NCBI GenBank assembly: GCA_025449735.1
Contig: JANWIV010000001.1
Span: 12,654-76,653 of the forward strand
Source: Candidatus Microgenomates bacterium
GTDB taxonomy: Bacteria > Patescibacteriota > Microgenomatia > UBA1406 > HO2-37-13b
Length of the DNA: 64,000 bases
Direction: 5' to 3'
Shown here: in pieces, positions 6,218 to 55,969 of the stretch
Layout: each line of letters begins with the position of its first letter
Numbering within the stretch: the first letter of the stretch is position 1
Notes under the pieces: generated by a model
Told to the model about the DNA's origin: nothing
Databases searched by the model: none
Seen by the model: the letters and a program-made list of their open reading frames with translations, nothing else
Made by a program: the position numbers and the translations under genes

Positions 6218-6219
6218 TG

Positions 6220-8019: not shown

Positions 8020-8024
8020 TTTTT

Positions 8025-12039: not shown

Positions 12040-12044
12040 ACTAT

Positions 12045-14415: not shown

Positions 14416-14426
14416 AGACAATAAGC

Positions 14427-17388: not shown

Positions 17389-17390
17389 GA

Positions 17391-19631: not shown

Positions 19632-19633
19632 TA

Positions 19634-21913: not shown

Positions 21914-21921
21914 AGAATGTC

Positions 21922-21935
21922 CTATTATATAATAG
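21922..21935. promoter_or_regulatory. Perfect 14-bp palindrome CTATTATATAATAG giving TATAAT on both strands (back-to-back divergent -10 boxes)
   Basis: It lies in the 31-bp gap between ATG 21913 (minus strand) and ATG 21945 (plus strand). Distances from the -10 boxes to the ATGs are 10 and 11 nt. Confidence 0.5.
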
Positions 21936-21944
21936 CCTTTGAAT

Positions 21945-26792: not shown

Positions 26793-28772
26793 CTAATTGT
26801 TAGATCTTTTCAATTTATATATCTCTAAGATGCCTGCTGTTTTATCAAATTGATAGAATGGTTTTGTCGCTTCAAACAGTTCATTTGCACCTTGGTATGA
26901 AGAGGGGGTCGGAAACTGCGGATAATTTTTATCGACAAATATGTATTCTGGTTTAGGATCCATATTGATTAGCGTTTTTTTAGCTTTTTCCAATTCACTT
27001 TGATAATAAAATTGCTCCATCATTGGTACTGGTAGCAGTTGGGTTTTCTCCGCCATGACAAGAATTACGGTATCAAATTGAGAAAATAAAAGAATTTTTT
27101 TTTCACCTGATGACAGTTTTTTTATTGCTGATACTGATTCGAATAATTCGTTCACCGTTCGTCCCGCATCTTCGTTGTAGGAGACCACATAAAAAGCACG
27201 ATTGCCGGGATACTTTTTTGAAATCTTTACCTGATTGTAGGCATAGGAGCGATATTCAATTCTTTTAGCTAAGTAATATGTACTAAAGCAGAATATTGCG
27301 ATAAAAGAAATAAATATCGTTATCTTAATTAGCTTTGAAAAGTTGTCCTTAAAATTTGACAGTTGGTCAAAAAAAATAATTAAAATAAGCAAAGCCGGCA
27401 AAATAACCACTGGCAAATTCGAACTGACACTACGGCTAATATAATAATTAAAAAGCATCAAACCATATCCAGCAAGACCAGCTGTGGCAGCATATATCCA
27501 GTTAAACGGTTTTTTACTAACAAATATTTGATTTAGAGAAAGAATGATAGTCAAAAAATAAATAGCCAAAATTGGCAAGTGCAAACCGAGGACTGGGGTT
27601 TTGACATTAGAAATTCCTTCTTGTGCTAAATAAACAAACTTAAAAAAGAAATTCCAGTTTGGCCAAGAACCAGAAACAGCTAATGTATAGATTGAAAAAA
27701 TTACAAAAACAAGAACTAAAGAGGTTAAGAAAAATGATGATTTTTTAAGAAAGAAAATAAGTCTCGCTTTTAGCGATAATTCATATTTTGATAAGGAGGC
27801 AAACAAAGTAAATGACATCAGCCCAATCGACAAAGCCAGACCTGTCTCTAAATTGTAAAGAACCGAGCCGGTCGTCAAAAAACAAGCAATTACAAATAGG
27901 GGAGTGGAAGATAAATTTTTATTCTTGTAAAGCAGATAAAATACCGGGATATCTAGAAAATATCTAAGCACGGTTGCTCCGGGCCAGACATAATTTTCCG
28001 ACACCGGATAAGTCGGGTAATTAAAAAGGGTAGTTACACCCATCATAATAAATAACCCGAAAAGACAAAGCAACTTATTCTGAGTCACGCGAAGCAAGAA
28101 AAAATACAAGAAAAAATAGTAAATCATCGTGACGACCATAAATACAAAATAAAGATTCATGTAAGAAAATGGGATTACAAATTGAAACAGTTTGTATAGC
28201 ACAAAAGGTAGTAGCATTCCATATTGGCTATATGTGTCAACCAACAGATGTTTGCCGGCAAACAAGTCATTGATGGTGGCGATAATAAAATTATGATGGT
28301 AATAATTAATCCAAATCCCAGTCTCAAGCAAGTAGCCAAAATTGAAAAGGACAACAAAAATCAGCAACATTGCCACTGCTAAATGATTTTTATTTAGAAA
28401 GTTTTTTATTGGTGAAATTTTCTTTTCTATCTTTAAATACTGATTACGCATACCAAAACCAAATTTCGGTAGTTTAAAAGAGAGATTTATATCTTTTTTA
28501 AAGAATCGACTTAACTTCATCGATAACAGAATCGTTACAATCGGTATGAAAATCAAAGACAGGTTATAAAATAATTTAAAATACCTCTTAGGGTTAAATT
28601 CTTCATGCCGCCATGAAACTAATTGCGTCCGATCGATACGATTCATTGACTCCTCAACGCCTAAATATTTCAAAACAATATAAATTACTCCCAAAATTAA
28701 TACTGATAATAAAAAACTGAATACAAGAACTAAAATTGATGAAGAAATTCGAATAGAATTATTTTTTTGCAT
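26793..28772 (-). CDS. Polytopic membrane protein (third type, unrelated by eye to families A/B) with C-terminal soluble domain
   Basis: 659 aa with many hydrophobic helices and a C-terminal hydrophilic domain of about 150 aa. The stop lies 3 nt from the convergent methyltransferase. Confidence 0.5.
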   Translation of the reverse strand: MQKNNSIRISSSILVLVFSFLLSVLILGVIYIVLKYLGVEESMNRIDRTQLVSWRHEEFNPKRYFKLFYNLSLIFIPIVTILLSMKLSRFFKKDINLSFKLPKFGFGMRNQYLKIEKKISPIKNFLNKNHLAVAMLLIFVVLFNFGYLLETGIWINYYHHNFIIATINDLFAGKHLLVDTYSQYGMLLPFVLYKLFQFVIPFSYMNLYFVFMVVTMIYYFFLYFFLLRVTQNKLLCLFGLFIMMGVTTLFNYPTYPVSENYVWPGATVLRYFLDIPVFYLLYKNKNLSSTPLFVIACFLTTGSVLYNLETGLALSIGLMSFTLFASLSKYELSLKARLIFFLKKSSFFLTSLVLVFVIFSIYTLAVSGSWPNWNFFFKFVYLAQEGISNVKTPVLGLHLPILAIYFLTIILSLNQIFVSKKPFNWIYAATAGLAGYGLMLFNYYISRSVSSNLPVVILPALLILIIFFDQLSNFKDNFSKLIKITIFISFIAIFCFSTYYLAKRIEYRSYAYNQVKISKKYPGNRAFYVVSYNEDAGRTVNELFESVSAIKKLSSGEKKILLFSQFDTVILVMAEKTQLLPVPMMEQFYYQSELEKAKKTLINMDPKPEYIFVDKNYPQFPTPSSYQGANELFEATKPFYQFDKTAGILEIYKLKRSNN

Positions 28773-29649: not shown

Positions 29650-29700
29650 ATAGGCGTTTTGTGATAATATACAGGTATTCTACAGTATATAAATGTGAAA

Positions 29701-30501
29701 ATGAAAATAGGCAATAAAAATCAAATTAGTATTCTTTTAAGAAAGCGCATTCTTGATTTTGCGGTGAAGACCGAGAAAGCCCATGTCCATATTGGTTCTT
29801 GCCTGTCAGCTATCGATATTCTAATTGAAACACTGGTATTTCAGATGGGGAGTCGTGACCGTTTTATTCTTTCCAAAGGTCATGCTTCGCTTGCGCTTTA
29901 TGTCGTCTTTAATTATTTAAAAAAAATATCCAACAAAGAGCTCGCTTCTTATTTTGAAGAGGGGACTCATTTTGGAATTCATACTCCGGGATCAATGCCG
30001 GATTTGATTCCACTGGCCACTGGTAGTCTTGGCCATGGCCTTTCTTTCGCTGCCGGAGTCGCCCTTGGCTACAAAATGCAGGATCAAAAAACAAAACGAC
30101 ACGTCTATGTGATGATCTCAGATGGCGAATGCAATGAGGGGGCGGTATGGGAAGCAGCGCAATTTGCCGTCGCCATAAGAATTGACAATCTGACGGTAAT
30201 CATCGACAAAAATAGAGTTCAAGCCCTTGGTAGAAATAAGGAGGTATTAGGCGATGGTGCCAGTGTTGCCAAATGGCGCGCCTTTGGATTCAATGTGGGG
30301 ACATGCAATGGCCACTCTTTTGCTGATTTGTCTGCCGGCTTTTCTGCTCTCAATAAACTTAAAAATAATCGGCCATCAGTCTTAATCTGCAAAACAATCA
30401 GAGGCCGAGGAATCAAATCAATTGAAAATAAAGTGGTATCGAATTACACCGCAGTCACTAAAGAAGTTTATGAGGAAGCAATTTTAAATTTGAAATCTTA
30501 G
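29701..30501 (+). CDS. Split transketolase, N-terminal (ThDP-binding) subunit, copy 1
   Basis: GHASLALY, GSLGHGL and ThDP motif SDGECNEGAVWEAAQFA...NLTVIIDKN. ATG at 29701 (the track starts at GTG 29695). Confidence 0.8.
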   Translation: MKIGNKNQISILLRKRILDFAVKTEKAHVHIGSCLSAIDILIETLVFQMGSRDRFILSKGHASLALYVVFNYLKKISNKELASYFEEGTHFGIHTPGSMPDLIPLATGSLGHGLSFAAGVALGYKMQDQKTKRHVYVMISDGECNEGAVWEAAQFAVAIRIDNLTVIIDKNRVQALGRNKEVLGDGASVAKWRAFGFNVGTCNGHSFADLSAGFSALNKLKNNRPSVLICKTIRGRGIKSIENKVVSNYTAVTKEVYEEAILNLKS

Positions 30502-30513
30502 TAATTATTAGTA

Positions 30514-30657
30514 TTTCGAATAAGATTTACGCGTGAAGTGGATGTTTGAGCAAGGGAGTGAATCGTGAGTCCAAGCATTGCTCGGCCGAGCGACGAACGA
30601 CCGGTCCCGACGGTACCGTCGGGATGCGAGTTCACTTCCAAGTAAATCTTGTTTGAA
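30514..30657. repeat. GC-rich structured element (MITE-like or structured RNA) between the two transketolase subunit genes
   Basis: Imperfect inverted arms tttcgaataagatttacgcgtgaagtg / cacttccaagtaaatcttgtttgaaa. Inner hairpins gagcaa..ttgctc and tcccgacgg-tac-ccgtcggga. An 8-bp direct repeat TTTGAAAT occurs at 30489-30496 and 30652-30659. Confidence 0.6.
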
Positions 30658-30665
30658 ATTTAACT

Positions 30666-31571
30666 ATGCGATACATTTTTGCAGAACAATTTCAAAAAAT
30701 AGCCGATAGCGACAAAAAAACTGTCTTTATGACAGGCGACCTGGGTTTTAATGCCTTTGAGCCTTTGATTCAGTCAATGGGTCCTCGTTTTATCAATGCC
30801 GGAGTCGCCGAGCATAATATGGTAACGGCGGCGGCAGGTCTGGCATATTCAGGTTTAAAACCCTGGATATATAGCATTGCTCCTTTTGTCAGCATAAAAG
30901 TGCTTGAGGAATTAAGAAACGATGTCTGCTTGCCAAATGCCAATGTCAAAATTGTCGCCCTTGGAGGTGGCTTTGATTATGCCATTGCCGGTCCCACCCA
31001 TCATGCGCTTGAAGATGTGGCACTAATGTTGACGCTGCCCAATATGAAGATTTATGTCCCTTCTTTTCCCCAAGATATCGCCCCCATCATCAAAGAAATG
31101 AGTGAGCATCAATCGCCCTCCTATCTGCGTCTTACCAAGGCGCATACTACAAACATTAATATCCCCGCCTTTAAACCGATGCGTCAAGTGATAAAGGGAG
31201 ATAAGCTTACTATCGTCGTCTTAGGCTCCCTTGCGGTTGAGGTGATTGATGCAGTCTCTAAATTTGAATACAAAATTGATCTTTGGGCAGTGTCTCAATT
31301 GCCGCTAAGAATTGATGATGCTTTTGAAGAATCAATTAAAAAAACTAAATCATTGATTATTATCGAAGAACACGTCGAGCATGGTGGGCTGGGGCAATAT
31401 TTATCCGCCTACCTGATGAAGCGCGGCCGAGTCAGTCCAAATTTTATTCACCTCGCAACCAAGGGCTATCAATCCGGGCTCTATGGCAGTCGAGATTTCT
31501 ATTTAAAAGAAAACTCACTTGACAAGAAAAGCATTGCTAGAATAGTTGAAAAATATTTAAGTCGATTATGA
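30666..31571 (+). CDS. Split transketolase, C-terminal (pyrimidine-binding) subunit, copy 1
   Basis: FINAGVAEHNMVTAAAGLA and GPTHHALEDVALM motifs. Confidence 0.8.
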   Translation: MRYIFAEQFQKIADSDKKTVFMTGDLGFNAFEPLIQSMGPRFINAGVAEHNMVTAAAGLAYSGLKPWIYSIAPFVSIKVLEELRNDVCLPNANVKIVALGGGFDYAIAGPTHHALEDVALMLTLPNMKIYVPSFPQDIAPIIKEMSEHQSPSYLRLTKAHTTNINIPAFKPMRQVIKGDKLTIVVLGSLAVEVIDAVSKFEYKIDLWAVSQLPLRIDDAFEESIKKTKSLIIIEEHVEHGGLGQYLSAYLMKRGRVSPNFIHLATKGYQSGLYGSRDFYLKENSLDKKSIARIVEKYLSRL

Positions 31572-32524
31572 ATGACCACCTCATAATAAAACTCCAAGGA
31601 CCGATTGCGATATTTGGCGCTGCTGGCTTTGTCGGCAGCCATTTAATGGCTCAAATATCCTCGGTCAGGTTGGACGTCATCGGTTTCACAAGAAATCCTA
31701 AAAGTTCTTGGCGACTTAAAAAACTTGGTATTGATAAAAAACAAATTGCGAGATGTGATTTATTAAACAAAGAATCAATAAACAAAGTGATTAAAAAATA
31801 CAGACCAAAAACGATATTTAATCTCGCCGCCTATGGTGCCTATTCCTGGCAAGAAGATATCCCGCGTATCTATGGGACAAATTTTAACTCGACATTGACT
31901 CTAGTCGAATGCCTTAAAAAATATCCAATCAAAATTTATATTCATGCTGGCTCTCAATCAGAATATGGACTTAATGCGAATCGTCCGAGCGAGGATAGCG
32001 AACTGCTACCCAACAGCCACTATGCAGTCTCGAAAGTAAACACCTATTATTTACTCAAGTACTATGCGATGAAGGAAAACTTTCCCGCTCTTCATTTGCG
32101 ACTCTACTCGGTATACGGACCACTTGAGGAAACTGGTCGCCTGATGCCGACTTTAATTGAAAAAGTTAAAGATGGTGCTTTGCCCAATTTTGTTGACCAA
32201 AATATTTCTCGCGACTTCATTTATATTGATGATGTTATTTCTGCCATGTTAACAGTCGCTACAAAAGCAACAAAAAAACATTATGGTCAAGCCTACAATG
32301 TCGCCACTGGCAAAAAAACTACTATGAAAGATCTTGCCTCAACAACAAGGAAACTTTTCAATATCAAACAAAGCCCTAAATTTGGTACGATGAAAAAGAG
32401 AGCTTGGGATTTGTCAGATTGGGTAGGAGAGCCATCAAAAATTAAGCGTGACTTTTCCTGGCAGGCAAAAACACCACTGAACGAGGGTTTAAAAAAATAC
32501 TTCGAATATGAAAAAAATAGTTGA
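31568..32524 (+). CDS. NAD-dependent epimerase/dehydratase (extended SDR)
   Basis: IFGAAGFVGSHL glycine motif and YAVSK catalytic Y-x3-K. Confidence 0.75.
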   Translation: MNDHLIIKLQGPIAIFGAAGFVGSHLMAQISSVRLDVIGFTRNPKSSWRLKKLGIDKKQIARCDLLNKESINKVIKKYRPKTIFNLAAYGAYSWQEDIPRIYGTNFNSTLTLVECLKKYPIKIYIHAGSQSEYGLNANRPSEDSELLPNSHYAVSKVNTYYLLKYYAMKENFPALHLRLYSVYGPLEETGRLMPTLIEKVKDGALPNFVDQNISRDFIYIDDVISAMLTVATKATKKHYGQAYNVATGKKTTMKDLASTTRKLFNIKQSPKFGTMKKRAWDLSDWVGEPSKIKRDFSWQAKTPLNEGLKKYFEYEKNS

Positions 32525-33212
32525 TTATTCAATAGTCTTTCCAGTGATGAATCAGAGTGATCATATTGAGAGAGTCATCCGCGCCTATCACAAACTTTTA
32601 ACAAAGCGTAAAATTTCTTTTGAGTTAGTTGCAGTTGTCAATGGGACGACAGATAACAGCTTTACAATTTGTCAAAATGTTTCAAAAACATTTGATAACG
32701 TCAAGGCATTCGAACTTAAAGAGGGTGGTTATGGTTTAGGAATATTGCATGGCTTTGCGCATTCGGAGGGCAAATATTTATGCTATCTAAATTGTGCCCG
32801 GATAAATGCTGAAGATTTGGTTCTGGCACTTCGTGAATTTGAGAAAGATAAAAATGATATTGTTCATGGTGTCCGCGCTTCTCGTGATAGTGTGCCCTGG
32901 AGAAAACTCGGCTCAAATATTTATAATACTTATTGCCAGTTATTATTTTCACTTAAAACCAACGACATCAATGGTAACCCCAATGTTTTCTCAAGAGCTA
33001 ATTTTGAAAAACTCAAGCTCACCTATACTGACAGTATGATTGATCTGCAACTTTTAGACCGTGCCCGACAACTCAAAATAAAAGTGAGAGAGATTGAAAT
33101 AGGCAATTATACCCGCGCCGGCGGCATTTCTACCTCTAATTTCAAAACAATTTTCCGATTAATTAAAGAAGTTACCATTTATTTTTTCAAAACAAGAGTA
33201 AAGAAATCGTAA
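32508..33212 (+). CDS. Glycosyltransferase family 2, DPM1-like soluble form
   Basis: YSIVFPVMNQSDHIERV start and GT2-like layout. 234 aa. Confidence 0.6.
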   Translation: MKKIVDYSIVFPVMNQSDHIERVIRAYHKLLTKRKISFELVAVVNGTTDNSFTICQNVSKTFDNVKAFELKEGGYGLGILHGFAHSEGKYLCYLNCARINAEDLVLALREFEKDKNDIVHGVRASRDSVPWRKLGSNIYNTYCQLLFSLKTNDINGNPNVFSRANFEKLKLTYTDSMIDLQLLDRARQLKIKVREIEIGNYTRAGGISTSNFKTIFRLIKEVTIYFFKTRVKKS

Positions 33213-33224
33213 ATATAGCTATCT

Positions 33225-33292
33225 TGTCATTCCCGCGAAGGCGGGAATCTATTTCGTTTTTTTATGGATCCCGTATCAAGTACGGGATGACA
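33225..33292. repeat. TGTCAT-type double-hairpin repeat (family R1)
   Basis: tgtcattcccgcgaaggcgggaatc ... ggatcccgtatcaagtacgggatgaca. Two inverted TGTCATYC-stem-loop-GRATC units. Confidence 0.8.
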
Positions 33293-33331
33293 AAAATACA
33301 ATAACCTATTGTAAATATTACAAGTACTATC

Positions 33332-33337
33332 TATAAT
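33332..33337 (+). promoter_or_regulatory. -10 box TATAAT, 7 nt upstream of ATG 33345
   Basis: tctataatcccattaATG. Confidence 0.4.
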
Positions 33338-33344
33338 CCCATTA

Positions 33345-34556
33345 ATGAAAAATTCTGACAAGTCACTTCGCGTCCCATATGGCCAGGCTGTCCATGACAA
33401 AGAAGAAACTGCCGCCGTTGTTAAAGTACTCAATGAACATCGCAGCATCATGGGACCGGAAACAAAAAAGTTTGAATCTAGTGTCGCCAAACTTTATAAC
33501 AAAAAATATGGCGTCATGGTTAATTCTGGTAGCAGCGCCAATCTCCTGGCAATTGAACTGCTCAATCTTCCCGCTGGTAGCGAAGTCATCACCCCAATTT
33601 TAACTTTTGCTACCACCGTCGGTCCCTTAGTCATGAAAGGGTTGACCCCGGTATTTGTCGATGTTGAACATGGCACCTACAATGTCAATGTCGACGCAGT
33701 TGAGCGAGCGATTACAAAGAAAACTCGTGCCCTGATGATCCCGCTACTTCTTGGCAATACTTCCGACATAAAAAGATTGTCTCAAATTGCCAAAAAGAAT
33801 AAGCTCTTTTTTATCGAAGATTCCTGCGATACCTTAGGTGCTAAATTTGATGGCAAACCTACCGGCAGTTATTCAGATATTTCTGTCACCAGTTTTTATG
33901 GCAGCCATATAATCACTGCCGGTGGGGGTGGGGGAATCCTGATGATGAATAAGACCGCTTGGTATGACCGTGCTAGAGTACTCAGAGGTTGGGGAAGAAC
34001 TAGTTCTTTATTTGGCGAATCAGAAGATATTAAAATTCGCTTCAAAGGTAAGATTGGAGTCATTCCTTATGACGCCAAATTTATTTTTGATGAAATTGGC
34101 TATAACTTTGTACCTATGGAGATAGGGAGCGCCTTTGGCAATGTGCAGCTCAAAAAACTGCCTACTTTTAGGAAAACGCGCGAAAGAAACTTTGCCAGTC
34201 TCTATAAATTTTTTGAGCAATATGAAAAGTATTTCATCCTTCCCAAGACTCATCCAAAATTAAAGACTCAGTGGCTCGCTTTTCCACTAACAATTAGAAA
34301 AACTGCTCCATTCAAACGGTTGGAACTAGCATCGTTTTTAGAAAACGCTAATATTCAAACTCGACCAATATTCACTGGTAATATCCTTTATCAGCCCGGA
34401 TTTAAAAATATCACTCATCGCAAGTTTGGGAATAGCTTCCCGGTGGCCGAGCAGGTGATGAAGCATGGCATTGTCGTCGGCGCCCATCATGGACTAAATG
34501 ACAAGCAGATTGAAAAAATAAAGAGCACCTTCTCCGAATTCCTAAGCAAATATTGA
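33345..34556 (+). CDS. RfbH/E1-like (or ColD-like) PMP/PLP-dependent NDP-4-keto-6-deoxyhexose 3-dehydrase
   Basis: VMVNSGSSANLLA, VITP, VFVDV..TYN and SFYGSHIITAGGGG, with His where aminotransferases carry the PLP lysine. There is only one Cys in the whole protein. Confidence 0.65.
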   Translation: MKNSDKSLRVPYGQAVHDKEETAAVVKVLNEHRSIMGPETKKFESSVAKLYNKKYGVMVNSGSSANLLAIELLNLPAGSEVITPILTFATTVGPLVMKGLTPVFVDVEHGTYNVNVDAVERAITKKTRALMIPLLLGNTSDIKRLSQIAKKNKLFFIEDSCDTLGAKFDGKPTGSYSDISVTSFYGSHIITAGGGGGILMMNKTAWYDRARVLRGWGRTSSLFGESEDIKIRFKGKIGVIPYDAKFIFDEIGYNFVPMEIGSAFGNVQLKKLPTFRKTRERNFASLYKFFEQYEKYFILPKTHPKLKTQWLAFPLTIRKTAPFKRLELASFLENANIQTRPIFTGNILYQPGFKNITHRKFGNSFPVAEQVMKHGIVVGAHHGLNDKQIEKIKSTFSEFLSKY

Positions 34557-34591: not shown

Positions 34592-35665
34592 ATGAAAATA
34601 GAGCAGTGGCAGATAACTCTTCAAAGTTCTACTTGGCCAAAAGTCGATTCAAGTAATAATGCAGAAGTGCTTTCGAACTTTTCGCTATCATCTCCTGAGG
34701 CATCTAGACTGATGCAACCGTTGCGATCAATTTTACTGGAAGATCAAAGTGGTTTTTATCGACTGCTATTAGAATCAAATGTTTTGAGTCTCAGATTAGG
34801 AACTGCCGATGTAGAGTTAGATTATGAAACGTATAATTTTCGTGGAGAACTAATTCAAAGGACAGCCACACTTACTTTTGACGAGATCAGTAAACATACT
34901 TATGAAGCTAATGGTTTTACTCAACCTGATGTCTCAAATCCAGAAGTGGCGCTCTTTCCAAAATATGATCTTGTTCGACAAGCTACTGAAGCCAATAGAT
35001 CAGATCAAGTAAAAGTAGTGGAGAATATCAGCGATGGCCCAATAGGCTTACTTGTCAATGGCATTGGCAAATATAACCCAATTACACTAGAGCATTTGGG
35101 TTTTGATGAAATACCGCTTACCGATCTCGAAGCCCAAACAATCGCAATCTCAAACCAAATGAGAGCATATCATGATCGTATAGGGACTATAGAGACAATT
35201 TTGTTTGTTGCTTCAAGAGATAGAGTTCATCGAACTGGTGTTGAAAATTTTTCAGATTATGGATTTTCGGCTCTACGCCCTTATCTTAATTCTGATGGCA
35301 GGCATGCGCTACATTTAAAATCTCTGTATGATTTGTCAAAGTCGATAAATATACCTTTAGATACATTTTACAGATCTGGGATAAAACACACTCGTTTTAC
35401 CTTTATGCCAACAATACCATTATTAAATGCTTGCCATGCTCTTAAAAAAGAAGTGTTGGTGCACAAAGCTCGCTATTCATCGATTAGTTATCTTAAATTA
35501 CAACCCTTTGAAGAAATGTTGCAAAGAGCTGAATCTTATCTTGAGTCAACTTCGGAAGCTATCGTTCGGGAAAAAATACTAGAGCTGGCCGGCGAGGTAA
35601 AACCGGATTTTACATCATCAGTAAGAGAAGCTAATCCATGGTTAGCAGAATACGGGATAACCTAA
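34592..35665 (+). CDS. Hypothetical protein
   Basis: 357 aa ORF with its own promoter-like TGaTATAAT 7 nt upstream. No recognisable motifs. Confidence 0.5.
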   Translation: MKIEQWQITLQSSTWPKVDSSNNAEVLSNFSLSSPEASRLMQPLRSILLEDQSGFYRLLLESNVLSLRLGTADVELDYETYNFRGELIQRTATLTFDEISKHTYEANGFTQPDVSNPEVALFPKYDLVRQATEANRSDQVKVVENISDGPIGLLVNGIGKYNPITLEHLGFDEIPLTDLEAQTIAISNQMRAYHDRIGTIETILFVASRDRVHRTGVENFSDYGFSALRPYLNSDGRHALHLKSLYDLSKSINIPLDTFYRSGIKHTRFTFMPTIPLLNACHALKKEVLVHKARYSSISYLKLQPFEEMLQRAESYLESTSEAIVREKILELAGEVKPDFTSSVREANPWLAEYGIT

Positions 35666-37278: not shown

Positions 37279-38208
37279 CTATTCCTTTTTGAAAGCCTTG
37301 ACAATCTGGTCAGTTAACCCCGAAGCTGAAAGTCCAAAAGTCTCTCGCAGATAATCATGATTGCCTAGTTCTTTAATGAACCGGTCATCAGTACCAATAA
37401 TAAGTAGACGGGGAGAGCCTACTACTTGAGATAAAACCTCAGCCACGGCCGAGCCAAATCCGCCAATACGATAATGCTCCTCGACGCTAACTGCAAGAGT
37501 CTTGCCGGCTGAAATGCGCTCAATCAATTTGGCATCAATTGGTTTAACGGTATGTACATCGACAACAGTTGGCATAATACCTTGCTTCTCAAGCAAGGGA
37601 ATGGCCTTGACCACCTCCGACAAAATTGGCCCGGTAGCAAAAATCACAATATTATCCCGTTTTGACTCAGAATAAATGTTGGCCTTACCGAAGGTGAAAC
37701 TAAAAGGCTTTTCATATACCGTCGGCTCGCTTTTTTTGCCGACTCGCACATAAACCGGCCCCTGGCGATTGAGCAGTGCCTCCATCCCGAGCACCGCTTC
37801 CATCTCGTCGCTCGGACTAAAGATATTCATATGAGGTAATGGCCGCATGATAGCAAAATCCTCCAAAGCAAAGTGAGTCGCCGATAAGACTCCATAAGAA
37901 AGACCCCCGCCAAGCCCAATTATCATCACATCCAAATTGTGATAGCAAATATCATTTCTTATTTGCTCATAACACCGCATAGTAACAAACGGAACAATTG
38001 AATAAACAAAGACTTTTTTACCTGATAATGCCAAGCCCGAGGCAACACCGATCATGTTTTGCTCAGCCACCCCCATGTTGATGACGCGTGTGGGAAATTC
38101 TTTTTGCAATTCCTCAAGAACGGAAAAACCAAGGTCTCCAGTTAAGAAGTAGGAATCCTTATTTTTCTTCATGTGATTATGCACTGCTTTGATTATTCCT
38201 GGTCTCAT
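37279..38208 (-). CDS. Split transketolase, C-terminal subunit, copy 2
   Basis: VINMGVAEQNMIGVASGLA and ATHFALEDFAIM. ATGA overlap with the N-terminal subunit gene. Confidence 0.8.
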   Translation of the reverse strand: MRPGIIKAVHNHMKKNKDSYFLTGDLGFSVLEELQKEFPTRVINMGVAEQNMIGVASGLALSGKKVFVYSIVPFVTMRCYEQIRNDICYHNLDVMIIGLGGGLSYGVLSATHFALEDFAIMRPLPHMNIFSPSDEMEAVLGMEALLNRQGPVYVRVGKKSEPTVYEKPFSFTFGKANIYSESKRDNIVIFATGPILSEVVKAIPLLEKQGIMPTVVDVHTVKPIDAKLIERISAGKTLAVSVEEHYRIGGFGSAVAEVLSQVVGSPRLLIIGTDDRFIKELGNHDYLRETFGLSASGLTDQIVKAFKKE

Positions 38209-39026
38209 GATTTTTTATTAAAACTACTCAATAATTCGGCTTTTTTTTCTTCACTGATTGAATAATAGTGAGATTCAAATTTGCCTTCAAAAAAAGGAAT
38301 GCCGCGACCTTTGATGGTTTTGGCAATAATAATATTTGGTTTATCTGACTGGCTATTTTGCGCCTCTGTCATGGCTTTTTTGAGTGATTGCAAATCATGA
38401 CCATCAGCCTCCTGTACTGCCCACCCGAATGATTCCAATTTTTCCTTAATTGGCTCAACAGAAATCACCTCTTCAGTTTTACCAAAACCCTGCAAGCCAT
38501 TTTTGTCAATTATGGCAATGACATTGTTTAGTTTATGCTGGCTAGCAAATAAAAATGCCTCCCAGTTGCTGCCCTCATCTAGCTCGCCATCAGACATCAA
38601 GACAAATACTTTATTTGGTCGTTTGTCTCTCTTAGCTGATAATGCCAAACCCAAGCCAACTGGCAAACCATGCCCAAGAGATCCAGTTGATAATTCCACC
38701 CCAGAGACCACTCTTGAGGCGTGCTCGGGCAAAAGACCACCATTAGTATCATATTGCGACAATAGCTTTTTATCAAAAAAACCACGCAAGGCAAGGGTCG
38801 CATAAAGAGAAGCGCCGGCATGACCTTTGGAAAGAATAAAGTAGTCACGGTTTATGTCTTCTGGATTCTTGGGGTCAATATTCATCACCTCAAAATAAAG
38901 CGCGGTTAAAATCTCGACAATCCCCAATGAACAACCAATATGATGCGACTCTAGGGGAACAAGCATTTTGATAATTTCGTAGCGGATTTGGTGTGCGATT
39001 GCATCAAGTTTATTATCTATTGCCAT
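38205..39026 (-). CDS. Split transketolase, N-terminal subunit, copy 2
   Basis: GHAGASLY, GSLGHGLP and MSDGELDEGSNWEAFLFA...NVIAIIDKNG. Confidence 0.8.
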   Translation of the reverse strand: MAIDNKLDAIAHQIRYEIIKMLVPLESHHIGCSLGIVEILTALYFEVMNIDPKNPEDINRDYFILSKGHAGASLYATLALRGFFDKKLLSQYDTNGGLLPEHASRVVSGVELSTGSLGHGLPVGLGLALSAKRDKRPNKVFVLMSDGELDEGSNWEAFLFASQHKLNNVIAIIDKNGLQGFGKTEEVISVEPIKEKLESFGWAVQEADGHDLQSLKKAMTEAQNSQSDKPNIIIAKTIKGRGIPFFEGKFESHYYSISEEKKAELLSSFNKKS

Positions 39027-41388: not shown

Positions 41389-41463
41389 AATTTGACTTAG
41401 GATCATGTCGACAATGTGTGGCAGATACGGCTCCTTTTTGTTATACTCATCTCACTCTTTTTC

Positions 41464-42369: not shown

Positions 42370-42373
42370 ATAA

Positions 42374-43423
42374 ATGAAAAATAAAGAAATTCTAATAATC
42401 GACTCCACCCTTCGAGATGGCAGTCATGCGGTGCATCACCAACTGACTGTCAAACAAGTGGCTGACTATAGCATGGCGGCAGAGAAAACTGGAATAAAGA
42501 TCCTAGTCGTCGGTCATGGTAATGGACTCGGCGCCTCTTCCCTTCATCTTGGCCAATCGGCTGTCGGGGATACCGAAATGCTAACTACTGCCAAAAAATA
42601 TCTTAAATCAACCAAGCTTTCAGCATTTCTAATTCCTGGATTTGGTACGATTAAAGACAATCTCAAACCGGCTCTTGACGCTGGAATTACCGCCTTGATG
42701 GTCGCCAGTCATTGCACCGAGGCCAATGTCACCCGTCAACATATTGAGTTTGCCGTCAAAAATAATCTTGAGACATATGGCATCCTTATGATGAGTCATA
42801 TGATTTCAGCGAGTGAGCTACTCACTCAAGCAAAACTAATGGAAAGCTATGGCGTGAACGGAGTCATCTTAATGGACTCGGCTGGCGCTTATTTGACGAG
42901 TGATGTCCGTCGAAAAATAAGCACTCTAGTCTCTGGTCTTAAAATTGGGGTTGGCTTTCATGCCCACAACAACTTGGGCCTTGCCATTGCCAATTCTGTG
43001 ACTGCAGTCGAAAACGGTGCTACCATTCTCGACACCACCTCACGTGGCTTTGGTGCGGGCGCTGGTAATTGCCAGATGGAAGTGGTGGTGGCGGTCCTGG
43101 AAAAAATGGGCTATCAGACTAATCTTGATTTATATCGATTGATGGATATTAGCGAGGAAATCGTCTCGCATTTCATGACACATTCTCAAGAAATAAATAA
43201 AATGACGCTCAGTAGTGGATTGGCGGGAGTTTTTTCTGGTTTTGCTCCACATGCTCAAAAGGCGGCCGAAAAATATGGTGTCGATGTTCGCGATATTTTT
43301 ATGGAGCTAGGCAAAAGAAGCATTGTCGCCGGACAAGAAGATGCTATAATAGACGTTGCCATGAACCTAAAACAGAAAAAGAGTAGCAGTGAAGAAAATT
43401 TTCAAATAGAATCCTTAACATGA
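42374..43423 (+). CDS. 4-hydroxy-2-oxovalerate aldolase, DmpG/MhpE-like (DRE-TIM metallolyase)
   Basis: IIDSTLRDGSHAVHHQ, VGHGNGLGASS and FHAHNNLGLAIANS motifs. Confidence 0.8.
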   Translation: MKNKEILIIDSTLRDGSHAVHHQLTVKQVADYSMAAEKTGIKILVVGHGNGLGASSLHLGQSAVGDTEMLTTAKKYLKSTKLSAFLIPGFGTIKDNLKPALDAGITALMVASHCTEANVTRQHIEFAVKNNLETYGILMMSHMISASELLTQAKLMESYGVNGVILMDSAGAYLTSDVRRKISTLVSGLKIGVGFHAHNNLGLAIANSVTAVENGATILDTTSRGFGAGAGNCQMEVVVAVLEKMGYQTNLDLYRLMDISEEIVSHFMTHSQEINKMTLSSGLAGVFSGFAPHAQKAAEKYGVDVRDIFMELGKRSIVAGQEDAIIDVAMNLKQKKSSSEENFQIESLT

Positions 43424-45201
43424 GAGTCAGCGATTACATCATCAAATATTTGAGTGAAAAAGGCGTCAACACTGTATTCATGGTTGCCGGTGGACAAGCA
43501 ATGTTTTTAAATGACGCGGTCTACAATTCAAAACGCATCACTCCAATATTTACCCACCACGAACAAGCCGCGGGTATGGCTGCCGAAGCATATGGTCGCA
43601 TCTCAGGTCGTCTTGGCGTCGCCATGGTGACAGCCGGACCGGGAGCGATTAATGCTCTTAATGGTGTTGCTGGTGCCTGGACTGACTCCTCTCCTATGCT
43701 GGTCTTGTCTGGTCAATCAGCTCTTTCTAACGTCAACTATATGAAGAAGACCAATATTCGCCAATACGGATTGCAAGGTATATATACCGAGCCGATGGCT
43801 AAGGCGATAACTAAATATTTTGTCACGGTTGAAGACCCCGCTAGCATTGCCTATCATCTAGAAAAAGCAATTTATTTAGCGACTACCGGCCGTGCCGGAC
43901 CAGTCTGGCTTGAGATTCCACTCGATGTCCAGCGAATGGAAGTGCCAAAAGCACTACTTAAGCATTTCGAGACACCAAGAACTAAAATAAATGGTGGCAC
44001 CAAAAACCAAGTCAAAAAAACCCTGTCTTTACTATATAAAAGCAAGCGACCCCTAATCATCGCCGGTCAAGGAATTCGCGTCAGTAATGCTCAGGAAACA
44101 TTTTCAAAATTAATAAATAAAATAAAGTCTCCAGTCGCTACCAGTCGACTCGGTATTGATCTAATTGAAACAGACAGTCCGCTTTTTGTTGGCCGTCCTG
44201 GTCTTTATGGAGACAGGTTTGCCAACCTTTCGGTGCAACTCGCTGATTTCATATTGGTAATTGGAGCCAGGCTTGACCCAGGAATAATTGGTTATGATGC
44301 GGCTGACTGGGGTAGAGGAGCGCAAAAGGTAATTGTTGATATTGATGAAAAAGAACTCAATAAACCCGGCATTCAAAATGCGACGCTCTTCTTGAATGAT
44401 GCCAAGGTTTTCTTAGATGAAATGGCTAAAGAACTAGACCTAAAAAAACTACCACAAACAAAAGAGTGGGTCGCGAGATGCAATAAATTGAAAAAGGCTT
44501 ATCCGACGGTATTGACCTCTTATAAAAAAGAGCATCCAGTAAACTCTTACTACCTTACCGATAGAATCTCCGCTGCTGCCAAACCGAGTGACGTCATTGT
44601 CGTTGATACCAGCTCCCCATTTCATGTCGTCTGCCAGGCTTGGAATATCAAAAAAGGCCAGCGCTTTATCACCACTGGTGGTATTTCGACCATGGGTTAT
44701 TGGCCAGCCGCTATTGGCGCTTGTCTAGCTAACAATCGAAAACGCACTATCTGCGTCACTGGTGATGGTTGCTTACAAATGAATATACAGGAGTTGGCTA
44801 CAGTGAAGCATAATAAACTGCCGATTAAACTTTTTATTGTCAACAATAATGGCTATTTACTTATCAGACACACCCAAAAAACTCATATGGAAGGACGACT
44901 CTTGGGAGAAAGTCCTAAGACCGGTCTTTGGTGCCCAGACTCAATCAAAATCGCTCAGGCCTATGGCATCAAATCAGTCAAGATTACGAGCACGAAAGAC
45001 ATTGATAAAAAAATCCGTATGGTCCTAGACTATAATGGACCTGTCATCTGTGATGTCGACTCTCCCCAATGGCAACTGATTATCCCCAGAATTTCATCTG
45101 AGAAAAAAGCCGATGGATCGATGGTCTCCAAACCATATGAAGACATGTTCCCATTTTTAGATCGGGATGAATATGAGAATATTATAAAAGTTGAAAAGTA
45201 A
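43420..45201 (+). CDS. Thiamine-diphosphate enzyme of the acetolactate-synthase large-subunit family (YerE-like candidate)
   Basis: 593 aa with a three-domain layout. HEQAAGMAAEAYGR and ThDP motif GDGCLQMNIQELATV...LFIVNNNGY. Confidence 0.75.
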   Translation: MRVSDYIIKYLSEKGVNTVFMVAGGQAMFLNDAVYNSKRITPIFTHHEQAAGMAAEAYGRISGRLGVAMVTAGPGAINALNGVAGAWTDSSPMLVLSGQSALSNVNYMKKTNIRQYGLQGIYTEPMAKAITKYFVTVEDPASIAYHLEKAIYLATTGRAGPVWLEIPLDVQRMEVPKALLKHFETPRTKINGGTKNQVKKTLSLLYKSKRPLIIAGQGIRVSNAQETFSKLINKIKSPVATSRLGIDLIETDSPLFVGRPGLYGDRFANLSVQLADFILVIGARLDPGIIGYDAADWGRGAQKVIVDIDEKELNKPGIQNATLFLNDAKVFLDEMAKELDLKKLPQTKEWVARCNKLKKAYPTVLTSYKKEHPVNSYYLTDRISAAAKPSDVIVVDTSSPFHVVCQAWNIKKGQRFITTGGISTMGYWPAAIGACLANNRKRTICVTGDGCLQMNIQELATVKHNKLPIKLFIVNNNGYLLIRHTQKTHMEGRLLGESPKTGLWCPDSIKIAQAYGIKSVKITSTKDIDKKIRMVLDYNGPVICDVDSPQWQLIIPRISSEKKADGSMVSKPYEDMFPFLDRDEYENIIKVEK

Positions 45202-45305
45202 TTAATATTGTACGGGTGCCAAGCCCGGAGGGACAACCCAACCGGTATGTGCGACGATTAAATAATTTTCTCGTCATCCTGATCTTGTTTCAAAATGCAG
45301 TATTT

Positions 45306-45380
45306 TGTCATTGCGAACCGACGGCACTCGGTGAAGCAATCTCTTGATTCTGAGATCGCCGCGCTTTGCTCGCGATGACA
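45306..45380. repeat. TGTCAT-type double-hairpin repeat (family R1)
   Basis: tgtcattgcgaacc...gaagcaatctc ttgattct gagatcgccgcgctttgctcgcgatgaca. A partial unit (cgtcatcctgatc) lies at 45272. Confidence 0.75.
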
Positions 45381-45402
45381 AGAAAGATAAGAGTAAGTTA
45401 TC

Positions 45403-47044: not shown

Positions 47045-47932
47045 CTATAAAGCGTGGGTTAATTCTTTTTTGTCAATTAATTTTAACTGCTTTCCATACC
47101 AATCATACATTTCGCTTATCGCAACAGGCATTGGGGTAAATTGAAGATTTTTTATTTCCCCTTTCAGTCGATTGTTGTTGCCACTATATTCTTTTTTAAA
47201 TCCTGGCTTCATTATTTTAATTTTGAGATTTTTTTGAGATATTTTTACAACCTCTTCGGCAATTGTCCTCAAATCTACTGATCGGCCAGTGCAAATATTG
47301 TAATGATGGTGTTTCAATCGACGAGTCAACATTTTTTCAATGATTGGAGCTAAATCTTTGACATAGAGATAATCAAAACGTACGTTTTGCCCAATTTTTA
47401 TATCCATGTCATAGATAGCCTTACAAATCGACTGGGAAATAAATCTTACTTGCCACCGTTCGCCTGGTCCAAAGCAACCAAAAAGTCGAAGATTATAAAT
47501 ATTATCGCTTTTGCCAGCATATAGAGCGCATATATATTTCGAAAAACCATATGGGTCAACAGGTACATGGGCGTCAAAATATTTCTCGTTCATTTTTGGT
47601 TTGTAATGGTGAGCATCATATTCGGCACCTGACCCAAAATAAAACATCCGTTTGTAAAGGCCTTGACAACGGGCTAAACTGAAAAACATCATCAAGTTAT
47701 TGTGCAAAATCTGTAATTGATTAGAATCTCCATGGCGGGTTGGCACGTCAGCCGCCGCATGGATAACAATATCTGGTTTTACTTTCTTAAGATATTTCTC
47801 AGTGTCTACAGAGTCAAGAAGATTGAGTAATTTTGAATTAGGTGAGTAAACCTGATAATTTCTGTTGATTGAAAAATACTCAACCAAATTACGCCCGACA
47901 AATCCACTTCCTCCGGTAATGAGAATTTTCAT
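47045..47932 (-). CDS. NAD(P)-dependent sugar epimerase/reductase (extended SDR)
   Basis: ILITGGSGFVGRNL and YGFSK Y-x3-K. ATGA-type overlap with the upstream dehydratase. Confidence 0.7.
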   Translation of the reverse strand: MKILITGGSGFVGRNLVEYFSINRNYQVYSPNSKLLNLLDSVDTEKYLKKVKPDIVIHAAADVPTRHGDSNQLQILHNNLMMFFSLARCQGLYKRMFYFGSGAEYDAHHYKPKMNEKYFDAHVPVDPYGFSKYICALYAGKSDNIYNLRLFGCFGPGERWQVRFISQSICKAIYDMDIKIGQNVRFDYLYVKDLAPIIEKMLTRRLKHHHYNICTGRSVDLRTIAEEVVKISQKNLKIKIMKPGFKKEYSGNNNRLKGEIKNLQFTPMPVAISEMYDWYGKQLKLIDKKELTHAL

Positions 47933-48900
47933 GACATCAGTTTCATATGGTAGCCATAGTACCAGCGATTGATTTGAGACAAGGTGTCAGCTACTGAATG
48001 TTTTGGTATCCAGTTAAGTATTCTCTTGGCTTTATTAAAATCAAGGACCTGATAGGGGATTTCGTTTTTGGCAATATCCAGAATTTCAAAATCAATTTTC
48101 TTATTTAAAGATTCCTCAGCCACCTTTATCAGGTTTAATACTGACATATCATCCCGGGAACCAAAATTAAAAGCCTCACCAGAAATTTTCTTAATATTCT
48201 CAGCAAGCATTAGATAGCCCGCTACGACATCCTTGACATAGACATAATCCCTAACGAATTTACCATTACTACGAATCATTAATTTTTGCCCCGAAATCAA
48301 AGCTTCCATAATACCAGGGATAATTCGTGAGAAATTAAGATCCCCCTCGCCATATACATTGCCGAATCGAGCCGTCACTACCGGCAGGCCATAGGTACTA
48401 TGATAGGTTTTGACAATCAGATCAGTTGCTGATTTGGAAACCTCATAAGGATGGTCCCCAGATAGTCGGTCAGTTTCCAAATATTTCTTCTTCTTGGTTT
48501 TGCCATAAGCTTTGTCCGAGGAGGCGACGACGACGGCTTCAATTTTTGGATAAAGCCGAGCGGTCTCCAAGACATTGACCGTCCCCATGATATTTGATGA
48601 TAAGGTGCGTCTCGGATTATAAAAGGCGACATCGACCAAGGGTTGAGCCGCTAAGTGAAAAATGTGAGAAATATCATGCTTGGTGACAACATGCATCAAT
48701 GACTCAAAATCTTCAATATTGATGTTGGACATTATTGTCCTTTTGTCAAGTTCCTTCCCATAAAAATAGGAGTAGGGATTTTGGGTCTGATAGGTCGTTA
48801 CAACTCGAGCTCCAATACTTAACAATTTTTCCACCAGATGACTACCGATAAATCCAGTACCACCGGTAACTAATATGTTCTTAGTATTTAATTTATGCAT
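47929..48900 (-). CDS. NDP-hexose 4,6-dehydratase, CDP-glucose 4,6-dehydratase (RfbG)-like
   Basis: ILVTGGTGFIGSHL, HLAAQPLV, NIMGTVNVLET, SSDKAYG and YEVSK. These blocks resemble RfbG. Confidence 0.6.
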   Translation of the reverse strand: MHKLNTKNILVTGGTGFIGSHLVEKLLSIGARVVTTYQTQNPYSYFYGKELDKRTIMSNINIEDFESLMHVVTKHDISHIFHLAAQPLVDVAFYNPRRTLSSNIMGTVNVLETARLYPKIEAVVVASSDKAYGKTKKKKYLETDRLSGDHPYEVSKSATDLIVKTYHSTYGLPVVTARFGNVYGEGDLNFSRIIPGIMEALISGQKLMIRSNGKFVRDYVYVKDVVAGYLMLAENIKKISGEAFNFGSRDDMSVLNLIKVAEESLNKKIDFEILDIAKNEIPYQVLDFNKAKRILNWIPKHSVADTLSQINRWYYGYHMKLMS

Positions 48901-49020: not shown

Positions 49021-49800
49021 TCATTCCCATACCTTCCATGGTGCCTTCTTACTGCTCCACAATTTATTCAGTTCCTCCACTTCCTTATAAGTGTCCATTG
49101 CATACCAAAAACCGTCATGTCGATAAATTGATAGCTGATTTTCCTTGGCCAGTCTTCTTAGCGCCGGATGCTCAGTCTCACCTTCTTTTATATACTTGAA
49201 AAACCGCTTGTCAAAAACCATGTAGCCGCCATTGACATAATCGTCCAAAACCGGCTTTTCAGTAAAATCAACTACTTTGCTGTCTTTACCTACTTTCACC
49301 AGCCCAAATTTGCTTCGTGGATGGACCCCGGTAATGGTGCCTATGGTATGCTGTTTCTTGTGAAACTTTACCAAATCTCGAATATCAAGATCAGTCACTC
49401 CATCACCATAGGTGACCATAAAATATTTATCTCGTGAAGAAATATATTTTTCGCATCTTAATATTCTTTCTCCCGGGGTAGTGTCAAGACCAGTATCGAC
49501 AAAAGTAATTTTTAAATCATCAACTGTCTCTCTATCTTTCAAATAGAATTTGCGTTTATGAGTTTTGGTTTGCAAAGTGAAGTCGCTCGTGAAGGCTTTT
49601 TGATTTAGGAAAAAATCCTTGATATAGTCGGCTTTATAGCCAAGCGCCAAGATGAATTCATTGAAACCGCAATAGGCATATATTTTCATGATGTGCCAGA
49701 TTATCGGCTGGCCGCCTACATAGACCATTGGCTTTGGTTTAAATTCGGTCTCTTCTTTGAGCCTAGTACCGGTGCCGCCACAAAGGATTATTGTTTTCAT
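49021..49800 (-). CDS. rfbF: Glucose-1-phosphate cytidylyltransferase
   Basis: MKTIILCGGTGTRLKEETEFKPKPMVYVGGQPIIWHIMKIY closely matches the RfbF N-terminus. The start is set to ATG 49800 because the track ORF adds 20 unlikely residues. Confidence 0.8.
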   Translation of the reverse strand: MKTIILCGGTGTRLKEETEFKPKPMVYVGGQPIIWHIMKIYAYCGFNEFILALGYKADYIKDFFLNQKAFTSDFTLQTKTHKRKFYLKDRETVDDLKITFVDTGLDTTPGERILRCEKYISSRDKYFMVTYGDGVTDLDIRDLVKFHKKQHTIGTITGVHPRSKFGLVKVGKDSKVVDFTEKPVLDDYVNGGYMVFDKRFFKYIKEGETEHPALRRLAKENQLSIYRHDGFWYAMDTYKEVEELNKLWSSKKAPWKVWE

Positions 49801-49885
49801 GATAATTATGTAATATGTATTATGTAGAATGTAAAACAAGCTTAAACGCTTGGCACTCACACAGGCAAAATATCTTATAAACTCA

Positions 49886-55574: not shown

Positions 55575-55602
55575 ATATATGGTTTGAAATTTATAAATAT
55601 CA

Positions 55603-55950: not shown

Positions 55951-55969
55951 ATGTTTTTATTTTATCAAA

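Follow-up and report, generated by a model that had tools for sequence, protein, structure and literature searches.

We analyzed a stretch of 64,000 nucleotides from a Candidatus Microgenomates bacterium (contig JANWIV010000001.1; "the window" below denotes this whole 64-kb stretch), centering on an open reading frame (ORF) that runs from ATG to stop at 33345..34556 on the forward strand and encodes a 403-aa, E1-like DegT protein of the His type with a loop devoid of cysteines (Cys-less), hereafter the target. The original prediction for this gene, made from the sequence alone, was of an E1-like His-type DegT enzyme without Fe-S ligands, and this was upheld by HMMER and MAFFT alignments. We consider it likely that the target is a nucleotide-sugar 3-dehydratase dependent on pyridoxamine/pyridoxal 5'-phosphate (PMP/PLP) and belonging to a large cysteine-less clade within the E1/RfbH lineage.

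Deoxygenation at C3 of cytidine diphosphate (CDP)-linked sugars, the route to abequose, tyvelose, paratose, ascarylose and yersiniose, is taught as requiring a PMP/[2Fe-2S] enzyme, E1, together with a reductase, E3, and ColD is treated as a special, cluster-free case for guanosine diphosphate (GDP)-linked sugars. Genomes of Patescibacteria encode little redox metabolism. A 2022 review names E1, SpnQ and ColD as the only characterized 3-dehydratases (PMC8987622), and later work adds close ColD homologs from C. jejuni (PMC10440746).

The target gene and its family

The protein matches Pfam DegT_DnrJ_EryC1 (PF01041) over residues 18-394 (4.5e-76), and this match, together with an aspartate-aminotransferase-like fold, places it in the DegT/DnrJ/EryC1/StrS family of fold-type I enzymes. 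Each of the motifs VNSGSSANLLA, EVITP, VFVDV..TYN, IEDSCDTLG, SFYGSHIITAGGGG and WGRTSSLFGESEDIKIRF was found in the target, so that the motifs and the count of a single cysteine given in the original prediction all hold. The top NCBIfam family is RfbH (NF011936), with a score of 341.6 bits against a cut-off of 423, which leaves the protein short of the E1/RfbH equivalog.

Among solved structures, a sequence search returned first the Yersinia E1, 3BCX (E=1.3e-65, ~32% identity), and next ColD, at about 3e-50; the entry 9WVY, deposited as a "putative NDP-4-keto-6-deoxyglucose-3-dehydratase", matched only the N-terminal 280 residues (E=2.5e-38), far more weakly than either E1 or ColD. An AlphaFold2 model of the target (predicted local distance difference test, pLDDT, 87.9; low confidence at loop residues 218-226 and 249-252) gave the same order in Foldseek, with E1 3BCX closest at a template modeling (TM) score of 0.88 and ColD second at 0.82, and many sugar aminotransferases were also retrieved at TM of at least 0.8. 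An antisense ORF at 33227-33490, which overlaps the start of the target, was considered as a real gene and rejected for lack of support.

A conserved loop in place of the Fe-S ligands

We took the cluster ligands of E1 to be C193, C251, C253 and C261 (spacing C-X57-C-X1-C-X7-C). At these columns, the MAFFT alignment gives the target Cys, Ser, Leu and a gap, respectively, and the later 125-sequence alignment puts Ile at 261; E1 itself carries Cys at the aligned columns, which confirms the earlier claim that three of the four cluster cysteines are missing. With the C193 equivalent alone retained, the protein has neither the [2Fe-2S] motif of E1 sensu stricto nor the preserved motif of SpnQ-type enzymes, the Cys ligands being absent. 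The retained residue is C161 (codon 33825..33827, forward strand), the sole cysteine of the whole protein. In the original prediction it was counted as a remaining cluster ligand, and this interpretation was not borne out: the column is Cys in ColD, too, and in the majority of sequences in each of the three classes defined below, and because this cysteine is common to ColD-type enzymes, C161 is not a relic of an Fe-S site.

In the HMMER alignment, the E1 loop WGRDCYCAPGCDNTCKKRF lies opposite WGRTSSLF-GESEDIKIRF of the target, and both HMMER and MAFFT place residues W216-F233 (WGRTSSLFGESEDIKIRF; 33990..34043, forward strand) at the position of the Fe-S loop. Within the Cys-less clade, W216, G217, R218, S220, E227 and R232 of this loop are invariant; such strong conservation indicates that the replacement loop is under selection and is not decaying. 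The only cysteines conserved across the clade are C161 and, in most members, C380. At the latter residue (about 34482-34484), at least 90% of the clade carry Cys, in the motif GCHHG, and the target has Ala (VGAHHG), hence one cysteine in the target and two in most of its relatives. Altogether, we regard it as highly probable that no Fe-S cluster is involved in the chemistry of this enzyme.

The active-site dyad

In alignments to E1 and ColD, the codons at 33903..33908 (forward strand) specify Ser187-His188, with His188 in place of the PLP lysine. His188, within SFYGSH, aligns with His220 of E1, a column in which the E1 H220K mutant 3BB8 has K, and with His188 of ColD, for which the alignment of 2R0T (ColD H188K) fixes the register by identifying the catalytic residue as the first His after Ser187. 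The substitution of His for the Schiff-base lysine, the mark of sugar 3-dehydratases, extends to the catalytic column in all 125 aligned sequences. The second DegT protein of the window (10918-12090, reverse strand) has the canonical lysine of SFYPTK aligned to His188, and the WGR...RF loop is entirely absent from it.

Ser187 precedes the catalytic His in the target clade and in ColD-type sequences, whereas E1-type sequences have Ala-His, so that the target has both the Ser-His dyad and the predicted independence from an Fe-S cluster that are characteristic of ColD. Across all three classes, 38 positions are conserved, and five well-conserved positions discriminate between the classes; S187 and F246 of the target clade agree with the ColD type. 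PDB 3GR9 is the S187N/H188K double mutant of ColD, and work by Cook and colleagues from 2009 is said to have shown that both substitutions are needed to make ColD an aminotransferase.

A large cysteine-less clade

A word-indexed homolog search returned 7983 proteins at E <=1e-20 among 8000 scored candidates, of which the best 120 were analyzed. These are 62-78% identical to the target, and all 120 carry His at the column of E1 residue 220, Cys at 193 and Ser at 192 and 251, with no Cys at 251, 253, 257 or 261 in any of them. The related genome records are mostly metagenome-assembled genomes (MAGs) of Patescibacteria (Roizmanbacteria at 72% identity, Levybacteria at 62-66%), with some labelled Gammaproteobacteria or Bacteroidota. 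Judging from these sequences, the target is a typical representative of a very large clade and no anomaly peculiar to its genome.

An exhaustive search of 50%-identity cluster representatives yielded 1214 at E <=1e-30. The 125-sequence alignment comprised 116 full-length diverse representatives together with E1, ColD, the target and six close homologs, and classes were assigned from the alignment: 68 sequences have a Cys-less WGR-type loop, 42 are of the E1 type (at least three loop Cys) and 15 of the ColD type (short HGW loop). A bootstrapped neighbor-joining (NJ) tree set the WGR-type sequences (E1-type and Cys-less) apart from the ColD type with 77% support and recovered, at 56%, a core clade of 43 representatives that are all Cys-less and include the target; smaller Cys-less lineages are scattered among E1-type sequences. 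The placement of the Cys-less clade as sister to the main E1 clade, seen in the first NJ tree, was dropped, with 0% bootstrap at that node.

In the lineage of the target, the Cys loop appears to have been either lost or never gained, and its NJ branching with Cys-bearing E1s does not decide between the two. The earlier wording, that the protein "has lost" its cysteines, is thus not established, given a large, conserved Cys-less clade and branching without support for either history. The short HGW loop, W90, E164 and the GDP-mannose/gmd context that define the ColD clade do not describe the target, which has the WGR loop, F88 and D162. In the literature searched, which covered few subscription journals and left the cysteines of 9WVY uncompared, we found no characterized or described Cys-less enzyme of the E1 lineage.

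Search for a reductase or ferredoxin partner

None of the 55 window ORFs of at least 150 aa contains a Fer2, FAD_binding_6 or NAD_binding_1 domain (Pfam), and the plant-type [2Fe-2S] motif CX4CX2CX20-40C does not occur in any stop-to-stop ORF of 60 aa or more, either in the window or in 36 related loci. No dedicated E3 (AscD/RfbI) partner was found within the 64 kb or these loci; the original statement that the window lacks an E3 gene is supported by both the Pfam and the motif scan, although it is weak evidence. A Cys-bearing E1-type locus, L035, also lacks an E3 neighbor, and SpnQ uses general reductases, which is why the missing gene carries so little weight. The control, Cys-bearing E1-type genes next to E3, failed: P0161 and P0268 lie on a 2.5 kb and a phage-like contig, respectively, and P0149 is adjoined by rfbG with no E3 neighbor. 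The missing E3 was consequently down-weighted and not used as a discriminator. In short, the missing cluster ligands are a strong argument against Fe-S chemistry, and the missing E3 gene is a weak one.

Separately, an 81-aa stop-to-stop frame on the reverse strand at 55392-55634, within the gap 55392-55970, contains nine Cys in CxxxC and CxxC-like pairs; it has no Pfam match and, by its motif, does not qualify as a plant-type ferredoxin.

CDP-sugar genes and domain fusions

The window encodes, on the reverse strand, an RfbF-like glucose-1-phosphate cytidylyltransferase (49021..49860; best NCBIfam TIGR02623, 272.7 bits, cut-off 300) and an RfbG-like CDP-glucose 4,6-dehydratase (47929..48900; best NCBIfam TIGR02622, 213.9 bits, cut-off 278). 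The presence of this pair had been recognized in the original prediction and stands, with the qualifications that both score under the curated cut-offs and that the RfbF ORF extends to 49860; the family match starts at residue 21, making the ATG near 49800 the likely start. The position of gmd, 60447-61427, was likewise confirmed; it lies 26 kb from the target and is not found beside the target's orthologs in the other genomes examined. Orthologs of both rfbF and rfbG (roughly 34-72% identity) are present within about 10 kb of the target's ortholog in loci L002-L007, L009, L014, L015, L020 and L036, and in L013 an rfbF ortholog alone is present. In the Levybacteria locus L020, the gene order is rfbF, rfbG, a short-chain dehydrogenase/reductase (SDR), an RmlC-like gene and the target ortholog, that is, an ascarylose-type layout minus E3.

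The rfbF/rfbG-like genes in the window and beside most orthologs, despite scores below the cut-offs, are those expected for the E1 substrate, CDP-4-keto-6-deoxy-D-glucose, and the target is predicted to act, probably, on a CDP-linked sugar. Because rfbF/rfbG orthologs are neighbors in most genomes and gmd is not, CDP is much better supported than GDP. The substrate had been left as either CDP- or GDP-linked; the first option is strengthened here and the second, with no gmd near the orthologs, is weak.

Natural fusions of the Cys-less domain are consistent with this context. In P0121, it is joined to a 4,6-dehydratase-like SDR, and other fusions carry other SDRs; P0131 adds an RmlC-like epimerase, and P0169 and P0172 add both RmlC-like and RmlD-like domains. 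Among the fusions examined, an FNR-type (ferredoxin-NADP reductase) partner never occurs. As predicted from their families, the fused domains are the steps directly before and after a 3-deoxygenation. These fusions (P0121, P0122, P0125, P0131, P0150, P0169 and P0172) form proteins of up to 868 aa and, combining multiple steps, could be convenient for biochemical work.

A predicted branched-sugar pathway and the gene neighborhood

On the forward strand, the window further encodes an ErwJ-like acetaldehyde dehydrogenase (41416-42369; Pfam AcetDehyd-dimer), an ErwI-like 4-hydroxy-2-oxovalerate aldolase (42374-43423; Pfam HMGL-like and DmpG_comm) and a YerE/ErwE-like carboligase dependent on thiamine diphosphate (ThDP; 43420..45201). 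The best PDB match of the latter is 8RPH, at 400 bits, whereas no acetolactate synthase scores above 238 bits, and 8RPH is JanthE, a characterized YerE-like carboligase (PMC12188165). On the reverse strand, an extended SDR (47045..47932; Pfam Epimerase) is a candidate YerF/ErwF-like reductase of the acyl branch; its ortholog is the immediate neighbor of the YerE-like gene in L004, L005, L008 and L027-L032, and the YerE-like gene and an SDR of this kind recur next to the target's orthologs.

The erwiniose cluster comprises ErwE (ThDP enzyme), ErwF (reductase), ErwI (BphI-like aldolase) and ErwJ (BphJ-like dehydrogenase) (Steitz et al., PMC9306805), and it also holds the genes for CDP-4-keto-3,6-dideoxy-D-glucose, the acceptor of YerE/ErwE (PMC9306805). 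The gene set of the window matches that described for erwiniose. The erwiniose-like cassette, at 41416-46590 (forward) and 47045-47932 (reverse), lies in a genome most similar to Patescibacteria MAGs and includes a class I/II aminotransferase, which always accompanies the ThDP gene (L021, L036). By analogy, the cassette predicts a 4-C-acyl-branched 3,6-dideoxyhexose. This context, YerE/ErwE-like branched-sugar genes that would consume the predicted product, had been omitted from the original prediction.

Immediately upstream of the target, on the same strand, are a split transketolase (29695-30501 and 30666-31571), an SDR (31568-32524) and a small family 2 glycosyltransferase (GT2; 32508-33212), and the arrangement of 29695-33212 is syntenic in relatives at 72-75% identity; with these closest relatives (72-75% identity), synteny with the window extends over about 20 kb. 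The window contains two such split transketolase-like pairs, each with an N-terminal ThDP domain followed by Pyr and C-terminal domains, at 29695-31571 (forward) and 37279-39026 (reverse). The first belongs to the same gene string as the target, in an arrangement that is syntenic in relatives, and these enzymes may perform two-carbon ketol transfer to keto-sugars. In the window and in the relatives' loci, the Cys-less enzyme is the only candidate C3-deoxygenase.

Proposed function and alternative explanations

We favor the interpretation of the target as an Fe-S-independent CDP-4-keto-6-deoxyglucose 3-dehydratase with amino-acid-driven PMP recycling of the ColD type. From the observed fold, catalytic His, absent Cys ligands, clade-wide conservation, neighborhoods and fusions, we infer what the enzyme acts on, that its turnover is of the ColD type, which compound donates the amino group and what becomes of the product. 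PMP would form a ketimine with C4 of CDP-4-keto-6-deoxy-D-glucose, made by the RfbF-like and RfbG-like enzymes of the window; His188 would abstract the C4' proton, and the 3-OH would be expelled. As no [2Fe-2S] cluster can be bound, the resulting glucoseen adduct would not be reduced by an E3-type electron chain. The delta-3,4-glucoseen adduct would instead be hydrolyzed as in ColD, giving PLP, ammonia and CDP-4-keto-3,6-dideoxy-D-glucose, and transamination with an amino acid as donor, probably L-glutamate, would restore PMP. The YerE/ErwE-like ThDP carboligase, and possibly the split transketolases as well, would then use this product as acceptor, the predicted outcome being 4-C-branched 3,6-dideoxyhexoses for a cell-surface glycan. 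We lean toward ColD-type turnover by analogy with ColD itself. The original prediction had already suggested ColD-like, Fe-S-independent chemistry, and the shared Ser-His dyad makes it the most reasonable mechanism, the chemistry itself being what we infer.

Several observations weigh against this interpretation. In the NJ tree, the target falls outside the ColD-type group (77% bootstrap); F88, D162 and R218, three of the five discriminating positions, are E1-like in its clade, and its loop length resembles that of E1, not ColD. Given these E1-like residues, the loop length and the position outside the ColD-type group, ColD-type turnover in an E1-like scaffold is an extrapolation. The RfbF-like and RfbG-like genes of the window both score under the NCBIfam curated cut-offs and, encoded on the opposite strand ~13 kb from the target, do not share its operon. 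The view of the genome here spans the 64-kb window, and a distant reductase may be encoded elsewhere. Biochemical data on any member of the clade were not found in the literature searched.

Of the competing explanations, all of which we consider unlikely, the one that survives best is a 3-dehydratase acting on a non-CDP sugar, either GDP-4-keto-6-deoxymannose supplied by the gmd of the window (60447-61427) or a deoxythymidine diphosphate (dTDP)- or uridine diphosphate (UDP)-linked sugar. In some fusions, the Cys-less domain is joined to RmlC/RmlD-like domains of the sort usual in dTDP pathways, and the sub-cut-off scores of the rfbF/rfbG-like genes would suit a substrate of this kind. However, gmd is 26 kb away and is not beside the orthologs, whereas rfbF/rfbG-like genes accompany most of them, and the target resembles E1, which is specific for CDP, more closely than ColD, which is specific for GDP.

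A rather improbable scenario confines the target to PMP-dependent dehydration and assigns reduction of the glucoseen to a non-Fe-S partner, for instance, with NAD(P)H via the SDR at 31568-32524 or another SDR, which would be a third deoxygenation strategy. This extended SDR is the second gene upstream of the target, a place that synteny preserves in close relatives, and Cys-less domains are often fused to SDR domains, but the fused and neighboring SDRs look like ordinary deoxysugar 4,6-dehydratases or 4-reductases, and distant relatives in rfbF/rfbG operons carry only the SDRs expected for standard 4-keto reduction. Moreover, hydride reduction of a PMP-glucoseen adduct has no known case.

It is also quite unlikely that the target is a 4-aminotransferase that, like SpnQ deprived of its reductase, makes CDP-4-amino-4,6-dideoxyglucose instead of a 3-deoxy sugar. 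The SFYGSHIITAGGGG motif of the target resembles SFNGNKIITTGGGG of the sugar aminotransferase 7B0M, but the Schiff-base Lys is replaced by His in every aligned member, and ColD is said to need both S187N and H188K to gain aminotransferase activity. A YerE-like partner would require a 4-keto-3,6-dideoxy acceptor, and a Lys-type DegT protein is already present in the window. With PLP and glutamate, SpnQ does transaminate when the reductase is absent, whereas ColD and E1 lacked transaminase activity under the SpnQ conditions (PMC8987622).

We assign a similarly low probability to a third C3-deoxygenation route in the Cys-less clade, one that employs neither E3/Fe-S reduction nor ColD-type hydrolysis with glutamate recycling. 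For example, a neighboring or fused SDR could directly reduce the PMP-glucoseen or enamine with NAD(P)H, or the enamine/4-keto intermediate could be trapped by the ThDP enzymes of the locus, be it the YerE-like enzyme or the split transketolases, which would couple deoxygenation to branching. Least of all do we expect a classical E1 that binds Fe-S through non-cysteine ligands or across the dimer interface with its reductase elsewhere in the genome, an idea that draws on the strongly conserved loop of about E1 length and on our 64-kb view of the genome but is countered by the single Cys per chain, with Ser, Leu and Ile at the Fe-S loop positions, by the clade-wide limit of two conserved Cys at most and by the absence of a ferredoxin- or FNR-like ORF from all 36 loci.

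Other features of the window and related loci

Eight large ORFs (597-774 aa), all on the reverse strand, lie within 4004-10211, 12628-14421, 15184-21958 and 26793-28772. None of them matches Pfam, and the number of hydrophobic segments per ORF ranges from 8 to 14. With 25-39% identity, seven fall into two families of paralogs, 4004/6220/15184 and 8025/12628/17391/19634; the ORF at 26793 has no match to the other seven. They are possibly glycosyltransferases resembling the GT-C class, or polymerases. A small GT2 gene (234-238 aa) is found directly beside a DegT gene twice, at 10215-12593 (reverse) and 32508-34556 (forward), one pairing involving the Lys-type aminotransferase and an RmlC-like gene and the other the His-type dehydratase, which suggests two parallel modules for sugar modification followed by transfer to polyprenyl phosphate.

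Directly downstream of the target, a 357-aa ORF at 34592-35665 (forward) has no Pfam, NCBIfam or PDB match and no counterpart in the syntenic relatives, whose target orthologs are followed by a convergent GT2; it looks like an insertion. An IS200-like Y1 transposase ORF (53687-54349, reverse; PF01797, 8e-07) marks the edge of the glycan region, and the 64 kb contain no tRNA genes. In the closest syntenic relatives, L021-L032 (for example, L021 7780-9261), a 486-493-aa His_Phos_1 protein is encoded between the SDR and the small GT2; it is absent at that place in the window, which has instead a 236-aa His_Phos_1 ORF at 51423-52133. Locus L034 (1-13149) carries a Cys-bearing E1-type gene on a viral-looking contig with many small ORFs and an HNH endonuclease; the gene adjoins a split ThDP enzyme, NeuB and a radical SAM gene and may belong to a phage-encoded 3,6-dideoxy or branched-sugar pathway.

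Implications and comparison with known systems

The counts suggest that E1-lineage enzymes without a cluster are no less widespread than their classical counterparts, making up 68 of the 125 aligned sequences and thousands of sequences overall, and that they are the usual form in Patescibacteria. If ColD-type chemistry indeed operates on CDP-sugars in this clade, the two known mechanisms would be linked within one lineage, which bears on which of them came first, and the database names "CDP-4-dehydro-6-deoxyglucose reductase, E1" and "aminotransferase" would need correcting. In that case, the clade would also provide a simple, oxygen-insensitive, single-protein route to CDP-4-keto-3,6-dideoxyglucose, usable for 3,6-dideoxy sugars and, with YerE-type carboligases, branched sugars. 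The findings also suggest that candidate-phyla bacteria carry elaborate surface glycans containing branched sugars.

By its sequence features, the target is a member of neither E1 sensu stricto, on account of the cluster motif, the equivalog score and E3, nor the ColD clade. With E1/RfbH/DdhC/AscC (Yersinia pseudotuberculosis, 3BCX), it shares the His at the Lys position, the WGR...RF loop, F88/D162/R218 and the CDP-glucose context, but it lacks equivalents of Cys251, Cys253 and Cys261, a detectable E3 partner and the roughly 30-residue N-terminal extension of E1, and it has Ser where E1 has Ala before the catalytic His and AGGGG where E1 has GEGG after it. With ColD/WbdK (E. coli O55; 2GMS, 3B8X) and the heptose C3-dehydratases of C. 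jejuni HS:5/HS:11, it has in common the absence of an Fe-S cluster and the Ser-His dyad; it also shares with ColD the conserved Cys after the PLP-binding Asp and, as predicted, a chemistry based on PLP/PMP and an amino-acid donor with no reductase. The ColD-type enzymes nevertheless form a separate clade (identity about 29-35%) with a short HGW loop, W90 and E164, and ColD acts on GDP-sugars in a gmd/colitose context. SpnQ, the dTDP-4-keto-2,6-dideoxyglucose 3-dehydratase of spinosyn biosynthesis, is likewise an E1 homolog without a dedicated E3 gene in its cluster, but it keeps the [2Fe-2S] motif and uses general ferredoxin/flavodoxin reductases (PMC8987622), whereas the target cannot bind such a cluster.

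The closest parallel at the level of the pathway is with yersiniose and erwiniose, which share with the window a YerE-like ThDP enzyme, a BphI/DmpG-like aldolase, a BphJ/DmpF-like dehydrogenase, an SDR and rfbF/rfbG-like genes. We take these known clusters to use a classical E1/E3 pair, as with Yersinia ddhC/ddhD. They come from Proteobacteria and mycobacteria, whereas the locus in the window most resembles those of Patescibacteria MAGs; it encodes the Cys-less enzyme and, in addition, two pairs of split transketolases.

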